Source: Patescibacteria group bacterium
GTDB taxonomy: Bacteria; Patescibacteriota; Patescibacteriia; Patescibacteriales; UBA12465
Direction of reading: 5' to 3'
NCBI GenBank assembly: GCA_041650715.1
Contig: JBAZKQ010000001.1
Span: 723,913-787,912 of the forward strand
Length of the DNA stretch: 64,000 bases
Part shown: positions 3,591 through 62,092 of the stretch, piece after piece
Layout: each line of letters begins with the position of its first letter
Numbering within the stretch: position 1 is the first letter of the stretch
Position numbers and translations under genes: made by a program
The notes under the pieces: generated by a model
Database searches by the model: none
What the model was told of the DNA's origin: nothing
The model's input: the letters and a program-made list of their open reading frames with translations, nothing else

Positions 3591-4961
3591 ATGAAAAAAA
3601 TAAAACATTTTTATATACTGTCTATTTTATTTTTTGTTTTATTTCCATTTTTTTTAGTTTCTGCTGATATCGCTCCAATGGGAAAGGTTAATAGTGCTGC
3701 TGATTTCAATGCTTGGGGCGGAGGCAAGTGCGTCTACTATTCGGGCGGGGGCTGCAGCTCGGGCCAATGGTTAAATAGTGACAAGAGTAATTGCGCCTGG
3801 GAGCCCTGTTGCAAACAACACTTGGATGGCTATCCCGCCAACGACTTTATTTATCGATTTGCGACTCTTAATACTCCTTGTGTTAGTAAGACCGGTTTAA
3901 CTGAGACCATAGAACCTGACCAAACAAAATGTGTTAATCCAAACTTTGACTGCTGCTGTCCGGGTGCTCCAATTATTGCGCAGCAAAGTACCGTAGAAGA
4001 AAAAAAAGCCATCTATACTCCTCCCGATTTGCAGGTGAAGATACCAGGTATGGAAAAACTGTCGACTATCAGTTGTGACGAAACCGGACAATGCGAAATT
4101 CCTTGGCTCGGGCAATATGTAATCGGTATTTATAATTACGCCCTGAGCATCGTCGGTATTTTAGCGGCCATTATGCTCATGGCCGGCGGCCTACTTTGGT
4201 TAATTTCGGCCGGAGATGCTTCAAAAATAACTCAAGCGAAAGAGCTTATCACCGGCAGCGTTACCGGCCTAATTATTTTGGCCGCCTCTTTTATAATTCT
4301 TGTCCAAATTAATCCTAACTTGGTAAATTTTAATGCCCTTAGTTTATCTTCAATCAAGCGAGTAGATCTCGGTGATGCCGCTTGGACCCCAATAGTTTCC
4401 ACTAAACAATCGGTTGCGGCCTATTGCGGCTGTGTTGATTGGCATACCTTATATGCAGGTTCTAATCTAAAATCAGCCTCGGCGATAAAAGCGAAATTAG
4501 CAGGTTCACCCTTAGAAAGTTATAGCGATTTAGTTGCTTCTGCTTGTCAGCAAACCCAAATTGATCCGGCTTTAGTTTTAATTATTTGGCGCGTTGATAG
4601 TATCTACGCAACCGCCGGTCCAGGAAAAAAGAACAACAATCCCGGTAACGTCCGCTGCGGTGAGAAAAAAAGTGGCAATGGCTGGACCTGCGTCGACAAC
4701 TTCAGGCATTATGATAATCTCGCAATCGGCATTACGGATTGGTTTGTCGTTGTTGGCCAAGGCAAGCGCCTGAGCTCAAGTAAGAATATTCGTGAATTAA
4801 TTAAAACCTATGCCCCACCCAGCGATCATAATGATACTCAAGCCTATATTAATTTGGTTATGAGCGCGATAGACTCCGCTCACGGCGGCCAATTAAAAAC
4901 GACCGACGGCAGTGCCGCTTCTTTGCAGAAATGTACCGATATAAATAGTACTTGCCCATAA
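3591..4961 (+). CDS. secreted pilin-like membrane protein: Cys-rich N-domain, two-TM pilin core, lysozyme/SLT-like C-domain (tentative)
   Basis: Signal peptide (FFLVSA|DI). Core IPWLGQYVIGIYNYALSIVGILAAIMLMAGGLLWLISAGDASKITQAKELITGSVTGLIILAASFIILVQINPNLVNF. The C-domain has QIDPALVLIIWRVDS...NNNPGNVRC, which resembles the lytic transglycosylase/muramidase helix plus NNxxN motif, with D in place of the usual catalytic E. Confidence 0.65.
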   Translation: MKKIKHFYILSILFFVLFPFFLVSADIAPMGKVNSAADFNAWGGGKCVYYSGGGCSSGQWLNSDKSNCAWEPCCKQHLDGYPANDFIYRFATLNTPCVSKTGLTETIEPDQTKCVNPNFDCCCPGAPIIAQQSTVEEKKAIYTPPDLQVKIPGMEKLSTISCDETGQCEIPWLGQYVIGIYNYALSIVGILAAIMLMAGGLLWLISAGDASKITQAKELITGSVTGLIILAASFIILVQINPNLVNFNALSLSSIKRVDLGDAAWTPIVSTKQSVAAYCGCVDWHTLYAGSNLKSASAIKAKLAGSPLESYSDLVASACQQTQIDPALVLIIWRVDSIYATAGPGKKNNNPGNVRCGEKKSGNGWTCVDNFRHYDNLAIGITDWFVVVGQGKRLSSSKNIRELIKTYAPPSDHNDTQAYINLVMSAIDSAHGGQLKTTDGSAASLQKCTDINSTCP

Positions 4962-5997: not shown

Positions 5998-6402
5998 CTA
6001 TCTCCCCCGATCCATTGCTTCGTTAGCCAGGCGATCGGCTTCCCCATTCCGCTCCCGCGGAATATGAGTATAAGAAATTTTCTTAAAATTTAAACTTAAA
6101 TTGTGAATAGTCAAAAACAAAGGCGCCAAGTCTTTGTTTTTTACTTTATATTCATGTTTTAATTGTTTGACGACAAGTTCACTATCTAAATAGCAATCAA
6201 GCTCATTAGCCTTTAAAGAGGCGGCTTTCTGAAGGGCGGCGATAAGCGCTTTATACTCAGCTTGATTATTCGTGGCCACGCCAAGATACTCGGAAATTTC
6301 TGCCACGAGTTTTTTGTTTTCGTCATAAATTACTGCGCCGATGCCAGCCGGTCCGGGATTACCCCGCGCTCCGCCGTCGGTAAAAATAATCGCTTTATTC
6401 AT
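5998..6402 (-). CDS. rnhA: ribonuclease HI
   Basis: 134 aa: FTDGGARGNPGPAGIGAVI...NNQAEYKALIAAL...SELVVKQL...NGEADRLAN (DEDD RNase H motifs). Confidence 0.85.
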   Translation of the reverse strand: MNKAIIFTDGGARGNPGPAGIGAVIYDENKKLVAEISEYLGVATNNQAEYKALIAALQKAASLKANELDCYLDSELVVKQLKHEYKVKNKDLAPLFLTIHNLSLNFKKISYTHIPRERNGEADRLANEAMDRGR

Positions 6403-33726: not shown

Positions 33727-34575
33727 TTATGCCTGGGGTTTGTCGTAAGCCCCGGCAAAACCACGGCCAGCATCACCATAGGCCTGATAAAGACCGTTAG
33801 CAGCTGCCCAGCCGTTGGGATAAGTTGGCCGGCCTTCGGCCATTACGGCCTCACCGAGAAATTCGGCGACAACCGGTTTGGTACCGGACAGGTTCACCTT
33901 GTCCGGGAAACGTTTGTCTCCCTTTGCGAGATAAGGTGTGGCTGTCATGACTCCGGCCTCTACCAAAAATGGTATCGGACCCGAGTCGCGAACATCTGCT
34001 ACCTGGACACCGCCGAGCGTGACAGTTTTGGTCGGATTTTTCAGCTGCTGAACAGCGGCTTCGATTCCGGCCATAGCTTCGGCCTCCGAAGAAACGTTTT
34101 CACGTTTCATAATTTCGGGAAGACGCATGGCGAGAACTTCTTCAGCCGTAACACCAGGACACTGTCCCTGGTAGGCGGCGCCAAGACAGTGGTCTGCGGC
34201 AGCTATCACCCGGTCCTCCTGAGTTGGCTCAACTTCGAGATATTTCAGGAGTTGCCCCAATGAGGAAGCCTCGAGATACTGGCTTGGCGGTAAGCCGAAG
34301 CCAAAATTTCCTGGGTTATGATGGTCGCATTGCCCAACCATGACCAGCGAGCCGGCGGCTTTCGGAGAGCATTCAAAAATAATGCATTCCAAAGCCTCGG
34401 CGGCAGATTCGGTTGAATCCAGAACGAAGCCGTCGGCACGGTAGGCTGTCATTGGGTTGCACTTTTCGCCTGCAATTGTTGCCGTGGCTAAAAGTAAACC
34501 GTGCTGAGCGGCAATTTTGCGTGCTCTCTGCTCCTCGATGTCGGGAGCGCCGAAAATAATCACAATTTTATTCAT
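33727..34575 (-). CDS. DHH-motif protein (putative phosphoesterase), paralog 1
   Basis: 282 aa from MNKIVIIFGAPD. Contains QCDHHNPGN and AAADHC. It aligns by eye with ORF 34862..35632 (KIVIIFGAPD/KIFFIVPAND; CDHH/IDHH; SSLGQLLKYLEVE/SSIEQVAALLGVE; IAAADH/IAANDK). The track's upstream 17 codons fall inside the conserved leader hairpin, so I trimmed them. Confidence 0.6.
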   Translation of the reverse strand: MNKIVIIFGAPDIEEQRARKIAAQHGLLLATATIAGEKCNPMTAYRADGFVLDSTESAAEALECIIFECSPKAAGSLVMVGQCDHHNPGNFGFGLPPSQYLEASSLGQLLKYLEVEPTQEDRVIAAADHCLGAAYQGQCPGVTAEEVLAMRLPEIMKRENVSSEAEAMAGIEAAVQQLKNPTKTVTLGGVQVADVRDSGPIPFLVEAGVMTATPYLAKGDKRFPDKVNLSGTKPVVAEFLGEAVMAEGRPTYPNGWAAANGLYQAYGDAGRGFAGAYDKPQA

Positions 34576-34601
34576 TTTTTTCTTTTTTTCTCCGCGCACC
34601 A

Positions 34602-34656
34602 TTGCTCGGATTATTCTGTAACTCATAAATTATGAAATCCAAAATAATCCGGACAA
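34602..34656 (-). promoter_or_regulatory. conserved 5'-leader long hairpin, copy 1
   Basis: Arms 34602-34615 and 34643-34656 (minus strand UUGUCCGGAUUAUU / AAUAAUCCGAGCAA) enclose a 27-nt loop containing CAUAAUUUAUG. About 100 nt of leader is near-identical to 36580-36690. Confidence 0.6.
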
Positions 34657-34723
34657 TATGCTCCTTAAAAATGAAACAAATTTTTAGGTCTTTCTATTTC
34701 TATATTTTTCTATCAAAGAACAT

Positions 34724-34776
34724 TTCCATTTCGTCGTTTCCGACTCATCAGCACTGATACACATCAGTGGATGGAA
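34724..34776 (-). ncRNA. type III hammerhead ribozyme (HHR-1)
   Basis: Minus strand: UUCCAUC|CACUGAU-GUGU-AUCAGUG-CUGAUGA-GUCG-GAAA-CGAC-GAAA-UGGAA. All core invariants are present (C3-A9, G12-A14, A15.1:U16.1, C17, G10.1:C11.1). Stems I, II and III are 7, 4 and 6 bp. Confidence 0.9.
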
Positions 34777-34861
34777 GAGCAAGTTTAAACGGCTTGCTCT
34801 TTTGAACTTTTTTTTGCTGGCCAACGCCAATTACTCCGCAAAAGAGAGTATGATTTTGAAA

Positions 34862-35632
34862 TTATTTTTGCCAGAAAAATTCCAAAATCTTGACCTGGGT
34901 TTCTGGAGTGGGTTTTTCCACTCCCGAGAATCCATTCTTCGGATCACCACCGGCCCAGCGAGCGAATGTCGTTCCATCCTCAGTGAGAGCATAAAACTGC
35001 ATGTGCCGTGGACCGAAATAAATCCATTTTCCATTGAGGCCGTCAACGGTCAGAAGTTCAGCGTACTGACCAAAAATGCGGTCGGTAATTGCCGAAGTGG
35101 AGCCCTTTGGGCAACGGACAAACCATTTTTCGCCCCGGATTTCAGCCGACCGGATATCAGCTACTGCTTGGGCCTCTTGATCAGGAGTGACGCCCTGCGA
35201 CAAGCGGTCTTGGGCACGAACAATTTTAATTTCGTTTTCAGTTGCGCCCATCGCCCTTAATGCCGGAATGTATCCTTTATCATTGGCGGCGATAAGGAGT
35301 TGATGGTGAGTAAGTTCTACTCCCAAAAGAGCGGCCACCTGCTCGATTGAGGATTTTTCGTTGAAACGATTTTCATCACGGTAAATGTGATGATCAATAT
35401 TAATTGCGTTCCAACGAGCGAGCCCGCCCAGTTCAACCCCGTAAATCACGGCCGAAGGATTAGCGGATAAAACTCCCTCAACTTTTTCAACCACGGTTTG
35501 TTCTAACCTGGCCCAGGTTGCTCCCCAGGCTTGACGGGTAACTACGTGACTGATTTTAGCGGCCTGAAGAATTTTACGGATTTCTACCGCTTCGCCATCA
35601 TTAGCTGGCACTATGAAAAAAATTTTTTCCAT
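34862..35632 (-). CDS. DHH-motif protein (putative phosphoesterase), paralog 2
   Basis: 256 aa. Contains NIDHH and AANDKGY. Start is coupled to the upstream stop (UAAUG). Confidence 0.6.
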   Translation of the reverse strand: MEKIFFIVPANDGEAVEIRKILQAAKISHVVTRQAWGATWARLEQTVVEKVEGVLSANPSAVIYGVELGGLARWNAINIDHHIYRDENRFNEKSSIEQVAALLGVELTHHQLLIAANDKGYIPALRAMGATENEIKIVRAQDRLSQGVTPDQEAQAVADIRSAEIRGEKWFVRCPKGSTSAITDRIFGQYAELLTVDGLNGKWIYFGPRHMQFYALTEDGTTFARWAGGDPKNGFSGVEKPTPETQVKILEFFWQK

Positions 35633-36063
35633 TACACAAAGTTTAATTGGCCACCAAGCTCATAAGCAACGGCGTCCTGGTTGGTTAAAACTTTTATCTC
35701 TTCGGCGAGCGAAGCTAAGTTCTTCCGAACTTTACTGGCTATGCCTATACCCCAGAGAATCCAAATATATTCAATTTGAACCACTCCGTTTTCGGATAGT
35801 ACCCACATACCGCTAGCCGGGGTTTCATTGCTGAACCCCAAACTCTTAGCATGTTCACGTAGCTTCTGGACGTGCTCGGTTGCCACCGGCTCACCAGTTT
35901 TTTGTAGAGTTGGGATATATAGGGCATCCCGTCCCCCTTTAAATTCTTCTCCGAGTTCCGAAAGTTCTTCAGTGGAATATGTCCACCAACCGATTTCCGG
36001 TTCAAGAGTACACCCACCAGCTCTAAGAGCCGCCTCAAGAGGCGACTTTGCTAAATATTTCAT
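35632..36063 (-). CDS. hypothetical protein (143 aa)
   Basis: The ORF starts 24 nt after HHR-2 and its stop overlaps the next start. No motif recognised. Confidence 0.55.
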   Translation of the reverse strand: MKYLAKSPLEAALRAGGCTLEPEIGWWTYSTEELSELGEEFKGGRDALYIPTLQKTGEPVATEHVQKLREHAKSLGFSNETPASGMWVLSENGVVQIEYIWILWGIGIASKVRKNLASLAEEIKVLTNQDAVAYELGGQLNFV

Positions 36064-36087
36064 CTACCGCGTTGTTTTAATGAACAT

Positions 36088-36140
36088 TTCCGTTTCGTCG
36101 TTTCCGACTCATCAGCACCGACATACATCGGTTGACGGAA
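36088..36140 (-). ncRNA. type III hammerhead ribozyme (HHR-2)
   Basis: Minus strand: UUCCGUC|AACCGAU-GUAU-GUCGGUG-CUGAUGA-GUCG-GAAA-CGAC-GAAA-CGGAA. Core and stem II are identical to HHR-1. Stems I and III carry compensatory changes. Confidence 0.9.
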
Positions 36141-36180
36141 GAGCAAGTTTGAACGACTTGCTCTTTTTTGAACGCCCTTG

Positions 36181-36579
36181 CTATTTAGCCTTGGGCCGAA
36201 AATCCAAGTACTCGAACTCCACTTCCAAAAAAGTGAGTTGAGTTGTTGACTGGCCCAATTTTTTCGCGGTCCTTTTCAGAACCTTGAGAGTCGCGGCTTT
36301 GTAGGCCGCTAATTCGGTGTATTCCGGATTACATTCGCCAGTGATGGCGACTGTAATTTCACCTCCGACAGGGCAGCCCCAGTCTTTGTGATAAACCGTG
36401 CGCGCCGACGTAATCACGGCTCCAACATAGGTGCCGTATTTTTTCATAACTGCGGCCGCTGATTGCTGCCATGCTTTTGCAGCGATTTCCACTGCATTGT
36501 CGGCAGTAATCACTGCATTGTCGTGGCCATAGCCTGCAACAACTCCCAGGCTGGCAAAAAATTTACTGGTTTTTTTCAT
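36181..36579 (-). CDS. hypothetical protein (132 aa)
   Basis: ORF preceded by the conserved leader hairpin and an A-rich tract. No motif recognised. Confidence 0.55.
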   Translation of the reverse strand: MKKTSKFFASLGVVAGYGHDNAVITADNAVEIAAKAWQQSAAAVMKKYGTYVGAVITSARTVYHKDWGCPVGGEITVAITGECNPEYTELAAYKAATLKVLKRTAKKLGQSTTQLTFLEVEFEYLDFRPKAK

Positions 36580-36606
36580 TTTTTTCTTTTTTCGTCCGCG
36601 ACACCA

Positions 36607-36661
36607 TTGTCCGGATTATTCTGTAGTCCATAAATTATGAAATTCAAAATAATCCGGACAA
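36607..36661 (-). promoter_or_regulatory. conserved 5'-leader long hairpin, copy 2
   Basis: Perfect 14-bp arms at 36607-36620 and 36648-36661 (UUGUCCGGAUUAUU / AAUAAUCCGGACAA). Confidence 0.6.
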
Positions 36662-36719
36662 TATGATCCACAAAAAATGAAAAATCTTTTTCGACTATTC
36701 AATTTCAAAGAACTTTTTT

Positions 36720-37668
36720 TCCTCTACCTAATCTAATTAATCTATTCTGAGGAAGTTCCCGAGTCCCAAGCTTGTTCAAGGCTTAATGGCTCGGCCGATC
36801 TCCTCATAAGAGACGGTCACGATTGTCGCTTTTCTCCGAGCCTTTTCTCCTTTCGGAAATACGGCCACAAGATACTTGGATCGCCTGCGCCCTTGATTAT
36901 AGTTTGCGACATAATCTCGGGATCAGCTCGACTAACCGTTTATTCTTTCCGGTCCGTAGGCCACGAAAGAAGCAAACGAATGAGCGCTTGCTGGTCTTAG
37001 GAAATGAACTCTCTCCCTGACTCGCAATTTTTGCGAGCAGATGTTAATTCATCTTAATCTCCTAAAATCGACACTAATCGCTCGATAATTTTTTTATTAT
37101 TTATGTACGATAGATTATTCCTTAATCTAATTAGGAGAACGGTTTAACCGCCGTTCTTTCGGCTCTCCGCTAAGCGGATAGTGATGAAGGGGAGAAACGA
37201 ATACATTATTTTGTGGCGCGCATGGGGCTGCACCGCTCTCTCTCCTCTCCATTACTATTCACTCAACAAAAAACTCTCTATTATGGAGAGAGCAAAGTTC
37301 CTATATATGCGGGCGCGCCTTAGCTTAATCAAGCCTCTGCGCTCACGTATATATCTTGGTTTTAAATAATGGCTCTCTCCTTCCATTACTTTTCTATTTG
37401 TAAATGTTCGTCTCGACTTCTCGCCCGGCTCTTGGCCTGGGCATTAGCGGAGACTGGGTCTCTCTTATCTTATTGATAAGGGATGGCCACTCGCCGTTAA
37501 GGCTTTCCCTGTTCTTACCCTTCGGATTGGACTACCACCATGCTCTCTCCTTCATAATGGTCGTCACTCTAACCCAGCTAAGTATAGAATCGGGGAGTGA
37601 TATCTCTTTATTAATGAATGTACTGGGATGTGTCCGAATGTCTCTTTGCCTTTTCTCACTTTCGATAC
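36720..37668 (-). ncRNA. candidate large structured non-coding RNA or long leader (no ORF of 60 aa or more on this strand)
   Basis: Lies downstream of the minus-strand promoter at 37701-37673. Dense local hairpins. Three GGAGAGAG-containing repeats (plus coordinates 37538-37560, 37367-37390, 37233-37256) and a complementary GCUCUCUCC (37285-37293). Class unknown. Confidence 0.45.
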
Positions 37669-37672
37669 TAAC

Positions 37673-37701
37673 AGTTTAGCATAGATATTTAATCTTGTCA
37701 A
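37673..37701 (-). promoter_or_regulatory. sigma70-like promoter facing the GC-rich block
   Basis: Minus strand TTGACA (37701-37696), 17-nt spacer, TAAACT (37678-37673). Confidence 0.55.
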
Positions 37702-37797
37702 TACTAAATCTTACATTTTATTGCTATTGTTAGCAAAACAGCGGACAGTATTGAGTAAAATAGGCATATTTATTTACTAAAAGTGTCATTATTTGAG

Positions 37798-37826
37798 TTG
37801 ACACCTATATTTAAATTTGCTATAAT
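37798..37826 (+). promoter_or_regulatory. consensus sigma70 promoter of the TrmB-like gene
   Basis: TTGACA (37798-37803), 17 nt, TATAAT (37821-37826). The -10 is embedded in palindromes GCTATAATATAGC and TATAGCTATA. Confidence 0.7.
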
Positions 37827-37911
37827 ATAGCTATAAACTACTATTTCGCTTGACGCCTAATAAGCGCAAACGAAATAAAAATCATTATTTGTAAAGTTAT
37901 CCCCAACCCAT

Positions 37912-38700
37912 ATGAACGAAAAAATCTTAATTAGTCTCGGTTTAAGCGGTGTACAAGCAGAGGTTTTTAGTTGCCTGCTCCAAAACGGACCGCAAAAAGC
38001 CAGTGATATCGCCAAATTAACCAAGCGCCCCCGCGGTGTCGCCTACAAAGGCTTAGAGGAATTGATTAGCTTGGGTCTGGCCAATAAAAAAGAAGCAAAG
38101 GCCGGTATAGCTGTCTTCGCGGCTGAGCACCCCTCGAATCTCGAGAAGGTCATAGAACAAAAAGAAAAAGACCTGGCTAAAACCAAGTCTGCTTTTGCGA
38201 GCTCCCTGCCCGATCTGATATCGACTTTCAATCTTGTCAGCAATAAGCCAGGAGTTAGATTTTATGAGGGGGAGGAAGGAATTAAAAAATCCCTGGAAGA
38301 TACCTTAAATTGCCAAGACATAATTTATACTTTTGCTGACATCGAGGCCGTTGAAAAAAACGTCAAAGAAATTAATGACGCTTACGCTAAAAAGAGGGAG
38401 AAGGCACAAATTAAAAAAAGAGTTATCGTCGCCGATACTCCTTTTAATCGCTCTTATTTAAAAAATTATAATGGCACTATTACCGAGTTTCGTTTTCTCC
38501 CCAAAGATTTTTACAGTTTTAACAGCGGCGTGCAAATTTATGAAAATAAAGTTTCTTATCAAGTAATTTCGGCGGAGAATAAGATGGCTATTATTATTGA
38601 AGACAAAAATATATACCAAATGAATAAGCTTTTATTTGAGTTTATCTGGGAAAAATTGGCAACTAAAATTAATGATTCTTCTCAAACGCCAAATACCTAA
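37912..38700 (+). CDS. TrmB-family HTH transcriptional regulator (paralog 1)
   Basis: 262 aa. N-terminal wHTH (LGLSGVQAEVFSCLLQNGPQKASDIAKLTKRPRGVAYKGLEELISLGL). The shared block PGVRFYEGEEGIKKSLEDTL matches ORF 52657..53430. Confidence 0.75.
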   Translation: MNEKILISLGLSGVQAEVFSCLLQNGPQKASDIAKLTKRPRGVAYKGLEELISLGLANKKEAKAGIAVFAAEHPSNLEKVIEQKEKDLAKTKSAFASSLPDLISTFNLVSNKPGVRFYEGEEGIKKSLEDTLNCQDIIYTFADIEAVEKNVKEINDAYAKKREKAQIKKRVIVADTPFNRSYLKNYNGTITEFRFLPKDFYSFNSGVQIYENKVSYQVISAENKMAIIIEDKNIYQMNKLLFEFIWEKLATKINDSSQTPNT

Positions 38701-61777: not shown

Positions 61778-62092
61778 GCCTCGGTAGCTCAGTGGTAGAG
61801 CAAAGGACTGGTTTTCGGTCCGCTCAATGGAAACATTGAGATGAAAATCGGGTGAATTCGGGGAAGCCTTAATTTAGAAATAAAAAAGGTAATCCCGAGC
61901 CAAGCTTTAATTGGGTAAATAATTAAAGAAGGTGTAGAGACTAGCGGGTGAGCCCAACAATAACCCCGCCGCGAGCGCCCGACTCCGTCCTTAAAAATTA
62001 AGCGGAGATGATATAGTCCGATCCTTAAGGAAACTTAAGTTGTAGCAAGGAAAATCCTTGTGTCGTCAGTTCGATTCTGACCCGGGGCACCA
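61778..62092 (+). tRNA. tRNA-Phe(GAA) interrupted by a group I intron; CCA encoded
   Basis: Exons 61778-61809 and 62050-62092 join to GCCUCGGUAGCUCAGUGGUAGAGCAAAGGACU|GAAAAUCCUUGUGUCGUCAGUUCGAUUCUGACCCGGGGCACCA. This makes a normal cloverleaf with anticodon GAA. Confidence 0.85.
61810..62049 (+). ncRNA. group I intron (IC3-like) in the tRNA-Phe anticodon loop
   Basis: P1 pairs exon GGACU with the intron guide GGUCC (61817-61821), with a U.G wobble at the 5' splice site. The intron ends in G. Core strings AAUUCGGGGAAGCCUUAA, AAUCCCGAGCCAAGCU and GAAGGUGUAGAGACUAG match tRNA-borne IC3 introns (Azoarcus tRNA-Ile, cyanobacterial tRNA-Leu) as I recall them. Confidence 0.85.

Follow-up and report, generated by a model that had tools for sequence, protein, structure and literature searches.

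Paired candidate hammerhead ribozymes with upstream hairpins bracket a two-gene cassette in a Patescibacteria chromosome

The DNA analysed here (the window) is a stretch of 64,000 nt from a Patescibacteria group bacterium (contig JBAZKQ010000001.1, positions 723,913 to 787,912). On its minus strand, genes for proteins of 143 and 256 amino acids (aa) form a small cassette, with a 132-aa gene upstream and a 282-aa gene downstream. The intergenic space behind the 256-aa open reading frame (ORF) holds a type III hammerhead ribozyme motif (HHR-1), and the same strand carries a second hammerhead (HHR-2) 1.36 kb farther upstream, in the gap that separates the 132-aa ORF from the 143-aa ORF, so that the two bracket the cassette. 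HHR-1 is located 86 nt past the stop codon of the 256-aa ORF (34862..35632) and 148 nt before the ATG at 34575. The original prediction, made from the DNA letters, had already given this sense-strand placement between two genes with the same spacing, and its sequence and coordinates for the element were exact, base for base. The hairpin abutting stem III, the promoter/operator-like leader, the host lineage and the published precedent described below go beyond that prediction. Judging from the sequence evidence described below, HHR-1 is likely to be a functional self-cleaving ribozyme that acts in mRNA processing.

Read from the minus strand (34776..34724), the HHR-1 RNA is UUCCAUC/CACUGAU-GUGU-AUCAGUG-CUGAUGA-GUCG-GAAA-CGAC-GAAA-UGGAA, where the slash marks the predicted cleavage site (displayed layout, SIGNIFICANCE). 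The invariant core is complete (C3 U4 G5 A6 N7 G8 A9, G12 A13 A14, A15.1-U16.1, and C at H17). A15.1 at 34729 pairs with U16.1 at 34771, the cleavage triplet is AUC, and the core-adjacent pairs C1.1-G2.1, G10.1-C11.1 and A15.1-U16.1 are all standard. Stems I and II are capped while the 6-bp stem III is open, the topology of type III. These core positions, the G10.1:C11.1 and A15.1:U16.1 pairs, the triplet and the topology had been read in the same way in the original prediction, and the scissile position that it placed between 34770 and 34769 agrees with C17 at 34770. The fold of the isolated 56-nt HHR-1 RNA also bears out the topology, as the minimum free energy (MFE) and centroid structures are both the hammerhead (-16.6 kcal/mol, z -2.7).

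A search with the Rfam type III hammerhead covariance model had been suggested as a check on this assignment, and its outcome was mixed. RF00008 (Hammerhead_3) matched HHR-1 over the full model length and in all core columns with 41.4 bits, and the E value was significant at the search sizes used (6.5e-8 in a 301-nt search; 1.4e-5 in the 64-kb window, both strands), but the score fell below the gathering score of 48.5 bits, which is a database-scale cut-off. Because the score was below this value, the default gathering-threshold Rfam scan did not list the hammerhead, and a permissive scan was required to detect HHR-1. At the scale of the 64-kb window, the match is far beyond chance. The family model R1, introduced below, gave HHR-1 a score of 79.2 bits. 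Counts of the word CTGATGA in the window (9, versus 3.35 expected) were uninformative alone.

HHR-2 was filtered out in the permissive whole-window Rfam scan and recovered in a local 161-nt scan, where it matched RF00008 with 40.5 bits (E 6.4e-8). HHR-1 and HHR-2 are copies of a repeat of ~95 nt, and the differences between them are compensatory, with an A-U pair replaced by G-C in stem III and a U-A pair by C-G in stem I. At positions 1.1-2.1, HHR-2 departs from standard pairing with an A·G mismatch; its orthologue in a related locus (L102:2408) has C-G. The two predicted cleavage sites, 34770/34769 and 36134/36133, are separated by 1364 nt that encode the 143-aa and 256-aa proteins. Seven-codon minus-strand ORFs with an ATGUUC start are present at the stem III end of both copies (34721-34698, MFFDRKI and stop; 36085-36062, MFIKTTR and stop), and are probably coincidental to the conserved GUUC flank.

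A homologue alignment of the 256-aa protein yielded 80 loci from a genome collection and 80 from a metagenome collection. We built the covariance model R1 from 20 gap-free hammerheads (alignment A4), and the R1 search returned 20 hammerheads, two in the window and 18 in eleven loci (L002-L004, L102-L104, L106-L109 and L111) in which the protein is at least about 53% identical. There were zero hammerheads in the ~150 loci with more distant homologues of the phosphodiesterase NrN (Acidobacteriota, Bacteroidota, Clostridia and others). Each of the 20 copies lies between genes, on the same strand as the genes that flank it. Across them, 97.6% of cells are in standard pairs and 11 of 17 pairs have changes on both sides, and a mixed set of phage and candidate phyla radiation (CPR) copies gave 96.2% pairing with double changes at 13/17 pairs; these percentages are biased upward, as the sets were gathered by a structural filter or model and the alignment was model-fitted. 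The diversity of pair types is not accounted for by that collection bias. Compensatory changes are present in all three stems, and the covariation score was 0.694, compared to 0.191 in shuffles, with 0/500 shuffles reaching the observed value. Pairing with slid partners was 32-52%.

Two kinds of variation were seen among the copies. Five related copies carry the core variant CCGAUGA (U4C), with structures otherwise intact and covarying. In L002, the modules at 2333-2446 and 3837-3931 are identical over >100 nt, including 27 nt upstream of the hairpin, and both have U17, not C17; this identity points to recent duplication or gene conversion.

Hammerheads of the same design were also found in phage sequences. 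A stem II-only pattern led to ~20 uncultivated phage contigs, in which the hammerheads are often clustered and mostly share the layout of the window copies, including an upstream hairpin with a UUCAAA or UCAA loop. The IMG/VR contigs L082-L100 hold 1-3 strongly scoring type III hammerheads each, with weaker matches in some. As in the window, stem-loop I is 18 nt and stem-loop II is 12 nt, and most have an upstream G+C-rich hairpin. A BLAST search of the hairpin-hammerhead module against 50,697 cultured-phage records returned nothing relevant.

Each window hammerhead directly abuts a hairpin on its 5' side. Both hairpins have a 9-nt loop ending in UUYAAA, and the last base of each lies directly before stem III; the HHR-1 hairpin is preceded by GUUCAAAA, and the stop codon of the 132-aa gene is followed after 15 nt by the HHR-2 hairpin. 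Of the 20 copies, 19 have a perfect hairpin of 7-13 bp whose end falls 0-2 nt from model position 1, which lies directly on the 5' side of stem III; in a control that accepted hairpins of at least 7 bp, 6.8% of 5000 random positions qualified. The hairpin arms covary between copies (GAGCAAG/CUUGCUC, GAGCAACGU/ACGUUGCUC and GGAUAACUA/UAGUUAUCC). Two ready identities for the hairpin were rejected. The window hairpins are not sense intrinsic terminators because a 3' U-tract is absent, and the terminator scan made a call on the opposite strand only. The UUCAAA loop is not that of a tRNA T-arm, as ARAGORN found no tRNA beside any module and the register has no 7-nt T-loop.

The hairpins are accompanied by short GUUCA boxes. 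Across 20 x 50 nt (1000 nt), 23 such boxes occur directly 5' of the hairpin or within its loop, compared to 0.84 expected, and GUUC stands directly 3' of stem III in 13/20 copies. The boxes may represent a protein site, a duplication remnant or shared ancestry. Positions of these and the other features are collected in Table 1.

Table 1. Positions of the ribozymes, hairpins, genes and leaders in the window, and of related elements in other loci (locus handle before the colon).
Feature	Position	Strand	Remarks
HHR-1, type III hammerhead ribozyme	34724..34776	minus	sequence, Rfam RF00008, family model R1, MFE fold, covariation
HHR-1 stem III, 5' strand UUCCAU	34776-34771	minus	pairs with AUGGAA, 34729-34724
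HHR-1 C17	34770	minus	predicted cleavage between 34770 and 34769
HHR-1 stem-loop I, CACUGAU-GUGU-AUCAGUG	34769-34752	minus	7 bp, GUGU loop, 18 nt
HHR-1 core, CUGAUGA	34751-34745	minus	
HHR-1 stem-loop II, GUCG-GAAA-CGAC	34744-34733	minus	4 bp, GAAA loop
HHR-1 GAA	34732-34730	minus	
Hairpin abutting HHR-1, GAGCAAG-CCGUUUAAA-CUUGCUC	34777..34799	minus	extendable to 34801..34775, overlapping the first two U of stem III
HHR-2, second type III hammerhead	36088..36140	minus	motif scan, RF00008, R1 75.3 bits
HHR-2 stem III	36140-36135 with 36093-36088	minus	
HHR-2 C17	36134	minus	predicted cleavage between 36134 and 36133
HHR-2 stem-loop I	36133-36116	minus	
HHR-2 core	36115-36109	minus	
HHR-2 stem-loop II	36108-36097	minus	
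Hairpin abutting HHR-2, GAGCAAG-UCGUUCAAA-CUUGCUC	36141..36163	minus	extendable to 36165..36139
GUUCA boxes	34803-34807, 36168-36172, 36149-36153		
GUUC 3' flanks	34718-34721, 36082-36085		
132-aa gene	36181..36579	minus	upstream of HHR-2; Mvol_0529 family ('DNA binding C-ter'), PADLOC PDLC01067 E 2.5e-25
143-aa gene	35632..36063	minus	first of the bracketed cassette; start codon 24 nt past HHR-2
256-aa gene	34862..35632	minus	second of the cassette; DHH-family phosphodiesterase, NrN homologue
282-aa gene	33727..34575	minus	downstream gene, length counted from ATG 34575; no family match
Promoter/operator-like leader of the 282-aa gene	34573..34660	minus	~67 nt past HHR-1; ends with ATG 34575
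Paralogous leader of the 132-aa gene	36577..36680	minus	about 110 nt, near-identical to the 34573..34660 leader
CCGAUGA hammerhead copies	L003:6644-6699, L102:3874-3929, L102:6537-6592, L109:1661-1716, L104:1589-1644		
Motif X copies	L103:3385-3450, 4704-4769, 6000-6065; L104:2321-2384, 3856-3919; L107:2732-2800		
Phage-contig hammerhead examples	L096 at 868, 2684, 3092; L098 at 655, 956, 2486		

The bracketed cassette encodes proteins with recognizable relatives. The 143-aa protein belongs to a family confined to close relatives. Its AlphaFold model (predicted local distance difference test, pLDDT, 92.9) has a predicted PII-like fold, and the best PDB fold match was 6zm9/6znb, a phage S-adenosylmethionine (SAM) lyase (probability 1.0, E 1.4e-3, template modelling (TM) score 0.5), followed by PII/CutA folds. 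The 256-aa protein matched the profile of PDB 9lq9, 'NrN', over its full length (E 2.7e-41), as well as the PADLOC models DHH_CorA (E 1e-32) and C3a116 (E 1e-35). NrN and the PII-superfamily SAM-AMP lyase are the two known alternative degraders of SAM-AMP, the signal of type III CRISPR systems (PMC10600005, PMC12255297). The cassette places homologues of both known SAM-AMP-degrading enzyme types of type III CRISPR-CorA systems next to each other in a CPR chromosome; no cas10 or corA was noticed in the window.

The 132-aa gene is probably the first gene of the transcription unit, and the order 132-aa gene, hammerhead, 143-aa gene, 256-aa gene is common to relatives. The 282-aa gene is missing at the corresponding position in most relatives, among which the downstream gene content varies. 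The gene caller of the source assembly starts this gene at 34602 rather than at the ATG at 34575; the paralogous leader upstream of the 132-aa gene supports 34575.

The window RpoB shares 100% identity with a protein from an NCBI 'Patescibacteria group bacterium' metagenome-assembled genome and 89-96% with Candidatus Falkowbacteria proteins, and by these identities the host is a Falkowbacteria-like CPR bacterium. A placement in Saccharibacteria, suggested by a TM7-labelled distant homologue, was rejected in view of the RpoB matches. Neighbouring genes in the window include rpoC, rpoB, Mur ligase genes, ftsK, an HrpA/HrpB-like helicase gene and polA. PHROG searches gave no matches for the cassette genes, and none for an integrase. 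Given these housekeeping neighbours and no phage-family matches, the locus belongs to the core CPR chromosome and is therefore not a prophage. We likewise rejected an origin in a prophage or defence island, as PHROG matches were lacking and PADLOC matched NrN-like and Mvol_0529-like proteins only.

The sequence that follows HHR-1 resembles the start of a new unit. In the leader of the 282-aa gene, a long and imperfect inverted repeat (ATTGTCCGGATTATT...AATAATCCGAGCAAT) encompasses TTGTCC-16 nt-CATAAT. The paralogous leader in front of the 132-aa gene has an inverted repeat of 28 nt (ATTGTCCGGATTATT...AATAATCCGGACAAT) that overlaps TTGTCC-16-CATAAT. The same leader is found in L104 both 3' of a hammerhead and 5' of the 132-aa homologue. 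This duplicated leader of about 110 nt probably acts as an operator at which one regulator controls both genes, the candidates being the TrmB-like protein encoded divergently at 37912-38700 and the 132-aa DNA-binding protein; it may alternatively form a long RNA hairpin.

The position after the NrN gene is filled by different elements in different relatives. It holds a hammerhead module in L002, L003, L102 and L111, and a classical terminator with a 12-bp stem and T-run in L105. In L103, L104 and L107, the same upstream hairpin is followed by a conserved 18-bp imperfect hairpin that we call motif X (consensus UUCYUUUC-C-GAG..CAUCA-loop-UGGUG..CUC-A-GAGAAGRR). A GTTCA-loop hairpin lies upstream of every motif X copy, and the copy at L104:3856-3919 shares the 3' flank too. 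L104 also has motif X in place of the hammerhead at the HHR-2 site. Rfam searches of the motif X loci gave no family and miRNA-type noise only; the motif could serve RNase III-type cleavage or be a cleavage element of a kind not yet described. The occurrence of a hammerhead, a terminator or motif X at one site marks it as a transcript-end or processing site, and the sequence context of HHR-1 suggests that a transcription unit ends there.

From these features we infer a promoter, co-transcription, cleavage and a protective role for the hairpin, which would act together as follows. Transcription would begin at a promoter in front of the 132-aa gene and read across HHR-2, the two cassette genes (SAM-lyase fold, then NrN) and HHR-1, with each hammerhead folding co-transcriptionally and cutting 3' of C17. 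The upstream product would end with the stable hairpin plus seven nt and a 2',3'-cyclic phosphate, giving an exonuclease-protected 3' end, while the downstream product would begin with a 5'-hydroxyl followed by stem-loops I and II. Since the hairpin would be left on the upstream RNA, HHR-1 would supply the NrN cassette mRNA with a defined, exonuclease-resistant 3' end. It would also cut this mRNA loose from the following unit, for which a separate promoter/operator-like leader is present, and in this way could substitute for a terminator or insulator. HHR-2 would separate the first cistron from the two cassette genes, making differing stabilities possible, and the short 6-bp stem III would favour product release.

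A broader proposal is speculative, and we give it a modest chance of being correct. The hairpin with its ...GUUCAAA loop and the cleavage element beside it could be a modular, exchangeable mRNA-end signal that replaces intrinsic terminators in the Falkowbacteria-like lineage and in uncultivated phages, with a hammerhead used in the window and motif X (RNase III-type or an undescribed self-cleaving element) in relatives. The released SAM-lyase-fold and NrN cassette could then be a stand-alone SAM-AMP-degrading unit.

Several observations weigh against a functional, mRNA-processing HHR-1. The Rfam scores of HHR-1 and of HHR-2, at 40.5 bits, are both under the gathering score of 48.5, and mispairing at 1.1-2.1, as in HHR-2, was a ground for rejecting candidates in Perreault et al. 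(PMC3088659). In a 98-nt context, the MFE structure pairs the cleavage-site CAUC with the core GAUG and stem III is not formed, a prediction qualified by energy models that disregard loop-loop tertiary contact. The upstream hairpin is able to capture the first two U of HHR-1 stem III; together with the competing 98-nt fold, this makes an inactive alternative fold possible. The putative promoter is a 9/12 consensus match, and the inverted repeat around it could be an RNA hairpin. The upward bias in the pairing percentages counts here as well. Finally, the near-identical L002 copies and the turnover at the site fit a selfish repeat equally well.

Such a repeat would be a selfish or duplicative intergenic unit of hairpin and hammerhead, possibly phage-derived, that spreads or is homogenised from one intergenic site to another and cleaves itself without a selected host benefit. 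Apart from the L002 modules, identical even 27 nt upstream of the hairpin, the points in its favour are the two subfamilies at one orthologous site (CUGAUGA with the GAGCAAG hairpin in the window, CCGAUGA with the GAGCAACGU hairpin in L102), presence and absence that vary among close relatives, the module architecture shared with phage contigs, and the GTTCA boxes that flank the unit at 23 per 1000 nt. However, 9/12 loci are occupied at the junction of the 132-aa and 143-aa genes, and L104 has a different structured element there with the same flanks, an occupancy that suggests selection for an element at this site. Hallmarks of a mobile element (a transposase, an integrase, target-site duplication, terminal inverted repeats) were not seen, all copies are sense and intergenic, and the compensatory changes between the window copies show that the structure was kept after divergence. 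On balance we regard a purely selfish repeat as rather unlikely. A motif that arose by chance or has decayed, and that lies without cleaving among ordinary intergenic hairpins, is the least credible alternative and extremely unlikely: the sub-gathering scores and the HHR-2 mismatch adjoining the core would agree with it, but not the E value of 1.4e-5 in the window, the two copies within 1.4 kb, or the 20 homologous copies, in which the core is intact and each of the three stems has compensatory changes.

The ribozymes might instead cleave conditionally, with alternative pairing or a bound factor switching them to tune the NrN cassette or the downstream genes. For either copy, folding in the 98-nt context predicts a competing structure in which the cleavage site is tied up with the core. 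Proteins could bind at the conserved GUUCA boxes, which stand on the 5' side of the hairpin, within its loop and on the 3' side of the ribozyme, and the U4C change in five related copies might slow cutting. We nevertheless consider a switch improbable, as a ligand-binding domain and an expression platform are absent, stems I and II are minimal and capped, and the competing fold is a thermodynamic prediction without tertiary contacts. A further alternative is that the two ribozymes excise a 1364-nt RNA (36133 to 34770) that an RtcB-type ligase or ribozyme reversal then closes into a circular mRNA for the SAM-lyase-fold and NrN proteins. Two same-strand hammerheads do bracket the cassette, and RtcB ligases join the end chemistry made by hammerhead cleavage (5'-OH and 2',3'-cyclic phosphate). 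This possibility was raised for clustered bacterial hammerheads by Perreault et al. (PMC3088659), who sought spliced or circular products but found none. Several relatives hold a hammerhead at just one of the two sites, a ligase gene was not identified within the window, and the conserved upstream hairpin better suits protection of a linear 3' end. We therefore hold a circular product to be very unlikely, and prefer linear mRNA processing by HHR-1.

HHR-1 shares its core, topology and 4-bp stem II with GAAA loop with the Rfam RF00008 type III hammerheads of sobemovirus and nepovirus satellite RNAs, along with an 18-nt stem-loop I whose apex is of the GAUGUGUAUC type. Small viral-collection records of 322-457 nt (L089, L101), retrieved with the stem II pattern, contain the same loop sequences. 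To judge by the sequence resemblance of its loops to those of satellite-RNA and phage hammerheads, HHR-1 may form a tertiary contact between loops I and II of the kind that allows fast cleavage at physiological Mg2+. Unlike the satellite hammerheads, HHR-1 lies in CPR chromosomal DNA and presumably within an mRNA, has a conserved hairpin on its 5' side and a sub-gathering score, and is part of no circular RNA replicon.

The proposed processing also resembles other systems in part. In phage T7 early mRNA, intergenic RNase III cuts leave a protective 3' stem-loop on the upstream mRNA. An intergenic endonucleolytic cut of a polycistronic RNA that leaves a 3' stem-loop on the upstream mRNA is what we propose here, although in the window the RNA itself would do the cutting, whereas the 18-bp hairpin of the relatives resembles a substrate for a protein nuclease. 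RiboJ-type insulators consist of a satellite hammerhead and a 3' hairpin, and provide the downstream gene with a constant, structured 5'-hydroxyl end. There too, upstream RNA is cleaved off by a hammerhead, but the hairpin is 3' of the ribozyme, while the window hairpin is 5' and would stay with the upstream product. Retrozymes of plants and animals are non-coding, circularising retroelements of 600-1000 nt. Like them, the window segment is bracketed by hammerhead-bearing direct repeats and its product would have ligatable ends; in contrast to these non-coding elements, it is 1364 nt long and encodes two conserved proteins in a bacterial operon.

The published precedent is the 2011 report by Perreault et al. 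(PMC3088659) of clustered hammerheads that flank genes in bacterial and prophage polycistronic RNAs, where three arrangements cleaved in vitro and one in Escherichia coli, and processing of long transcripts was proposed. With clustered gene-flanking hammerheads published then, the window pair belongs to a known arrangement. As in those clusters, several same-strand intergenic hammerheads bracket one or two small genes in the window and also in L002 and L102, and the proposed role is the same, the cutting of long transcripts into gene-length mRNAs. The gene content offers a parallel as well: the Agrobacterium tumefaciens hammerheads flank the anti-restriction gene ardA (PMC3088659), and the window pair flanks a SAM-lyase-fold gene and an NrN gene, homologues of enzymes that degrade a CRISPR signal. 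The window locus is also core chromosome without an integrase, while proximity to prophages or integrases is frequent, though not obligatory, in known clusters.

Our literature search found no report of hammerheads in CPR bacteria, Patescibacteria or Saccharibacteria, nor of hairpin-coupled hammerheads. New here are the Patescibacteria host, the location outside a prophage, the close association with a hairpin on the 5' side and the apparent exchange with a terminator or motif X. The range of hammerheads is thereby extended to Patescibacteria. A 2017 review (PMC6155905) repeats the findings of Perreault et al. and calls the role of prokaryotic hammerheads an open question, for which this locus offers a clean natural bacterial case outside prophages. 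The location in a terminator slot, the hairpin at the prospective 3' end and the promoter-like leader of the next unit make a ribozyme that serves as an mRNA 3'-end or insulator signal directly testable. The analysis also flags a small operon in which homologues of the two known SAM-AMP-degrading enzymes are paired.

Two other regions of the window stood out. Between the TrmB-like regulator and the 132-aa gene, a 1.25-kb stretch (36663-37911) has no called genes. Six related loci match it at 72-78% nucleotide identity, a degree of conservation on a par with that of the neighbouring coding regions, and it contains recurring GGAGAGAGC motifs. Rfam searches of this ORF-poor region gave miRNA-type noise only, and it may be a large non-coding RNA or hold small unannotated genes. 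Farther along, a group I intron was identified on the plus strand at 61801-62040 (Rfam, 93.3 bits), inside a tRNA gene that ARAGORN did not call. The 5' half of this split tRNA starts at ~61778 and the 3' half runs to ~62093 on the plus strand, in a cluster with tRNA-Ile and tRNA-Met.

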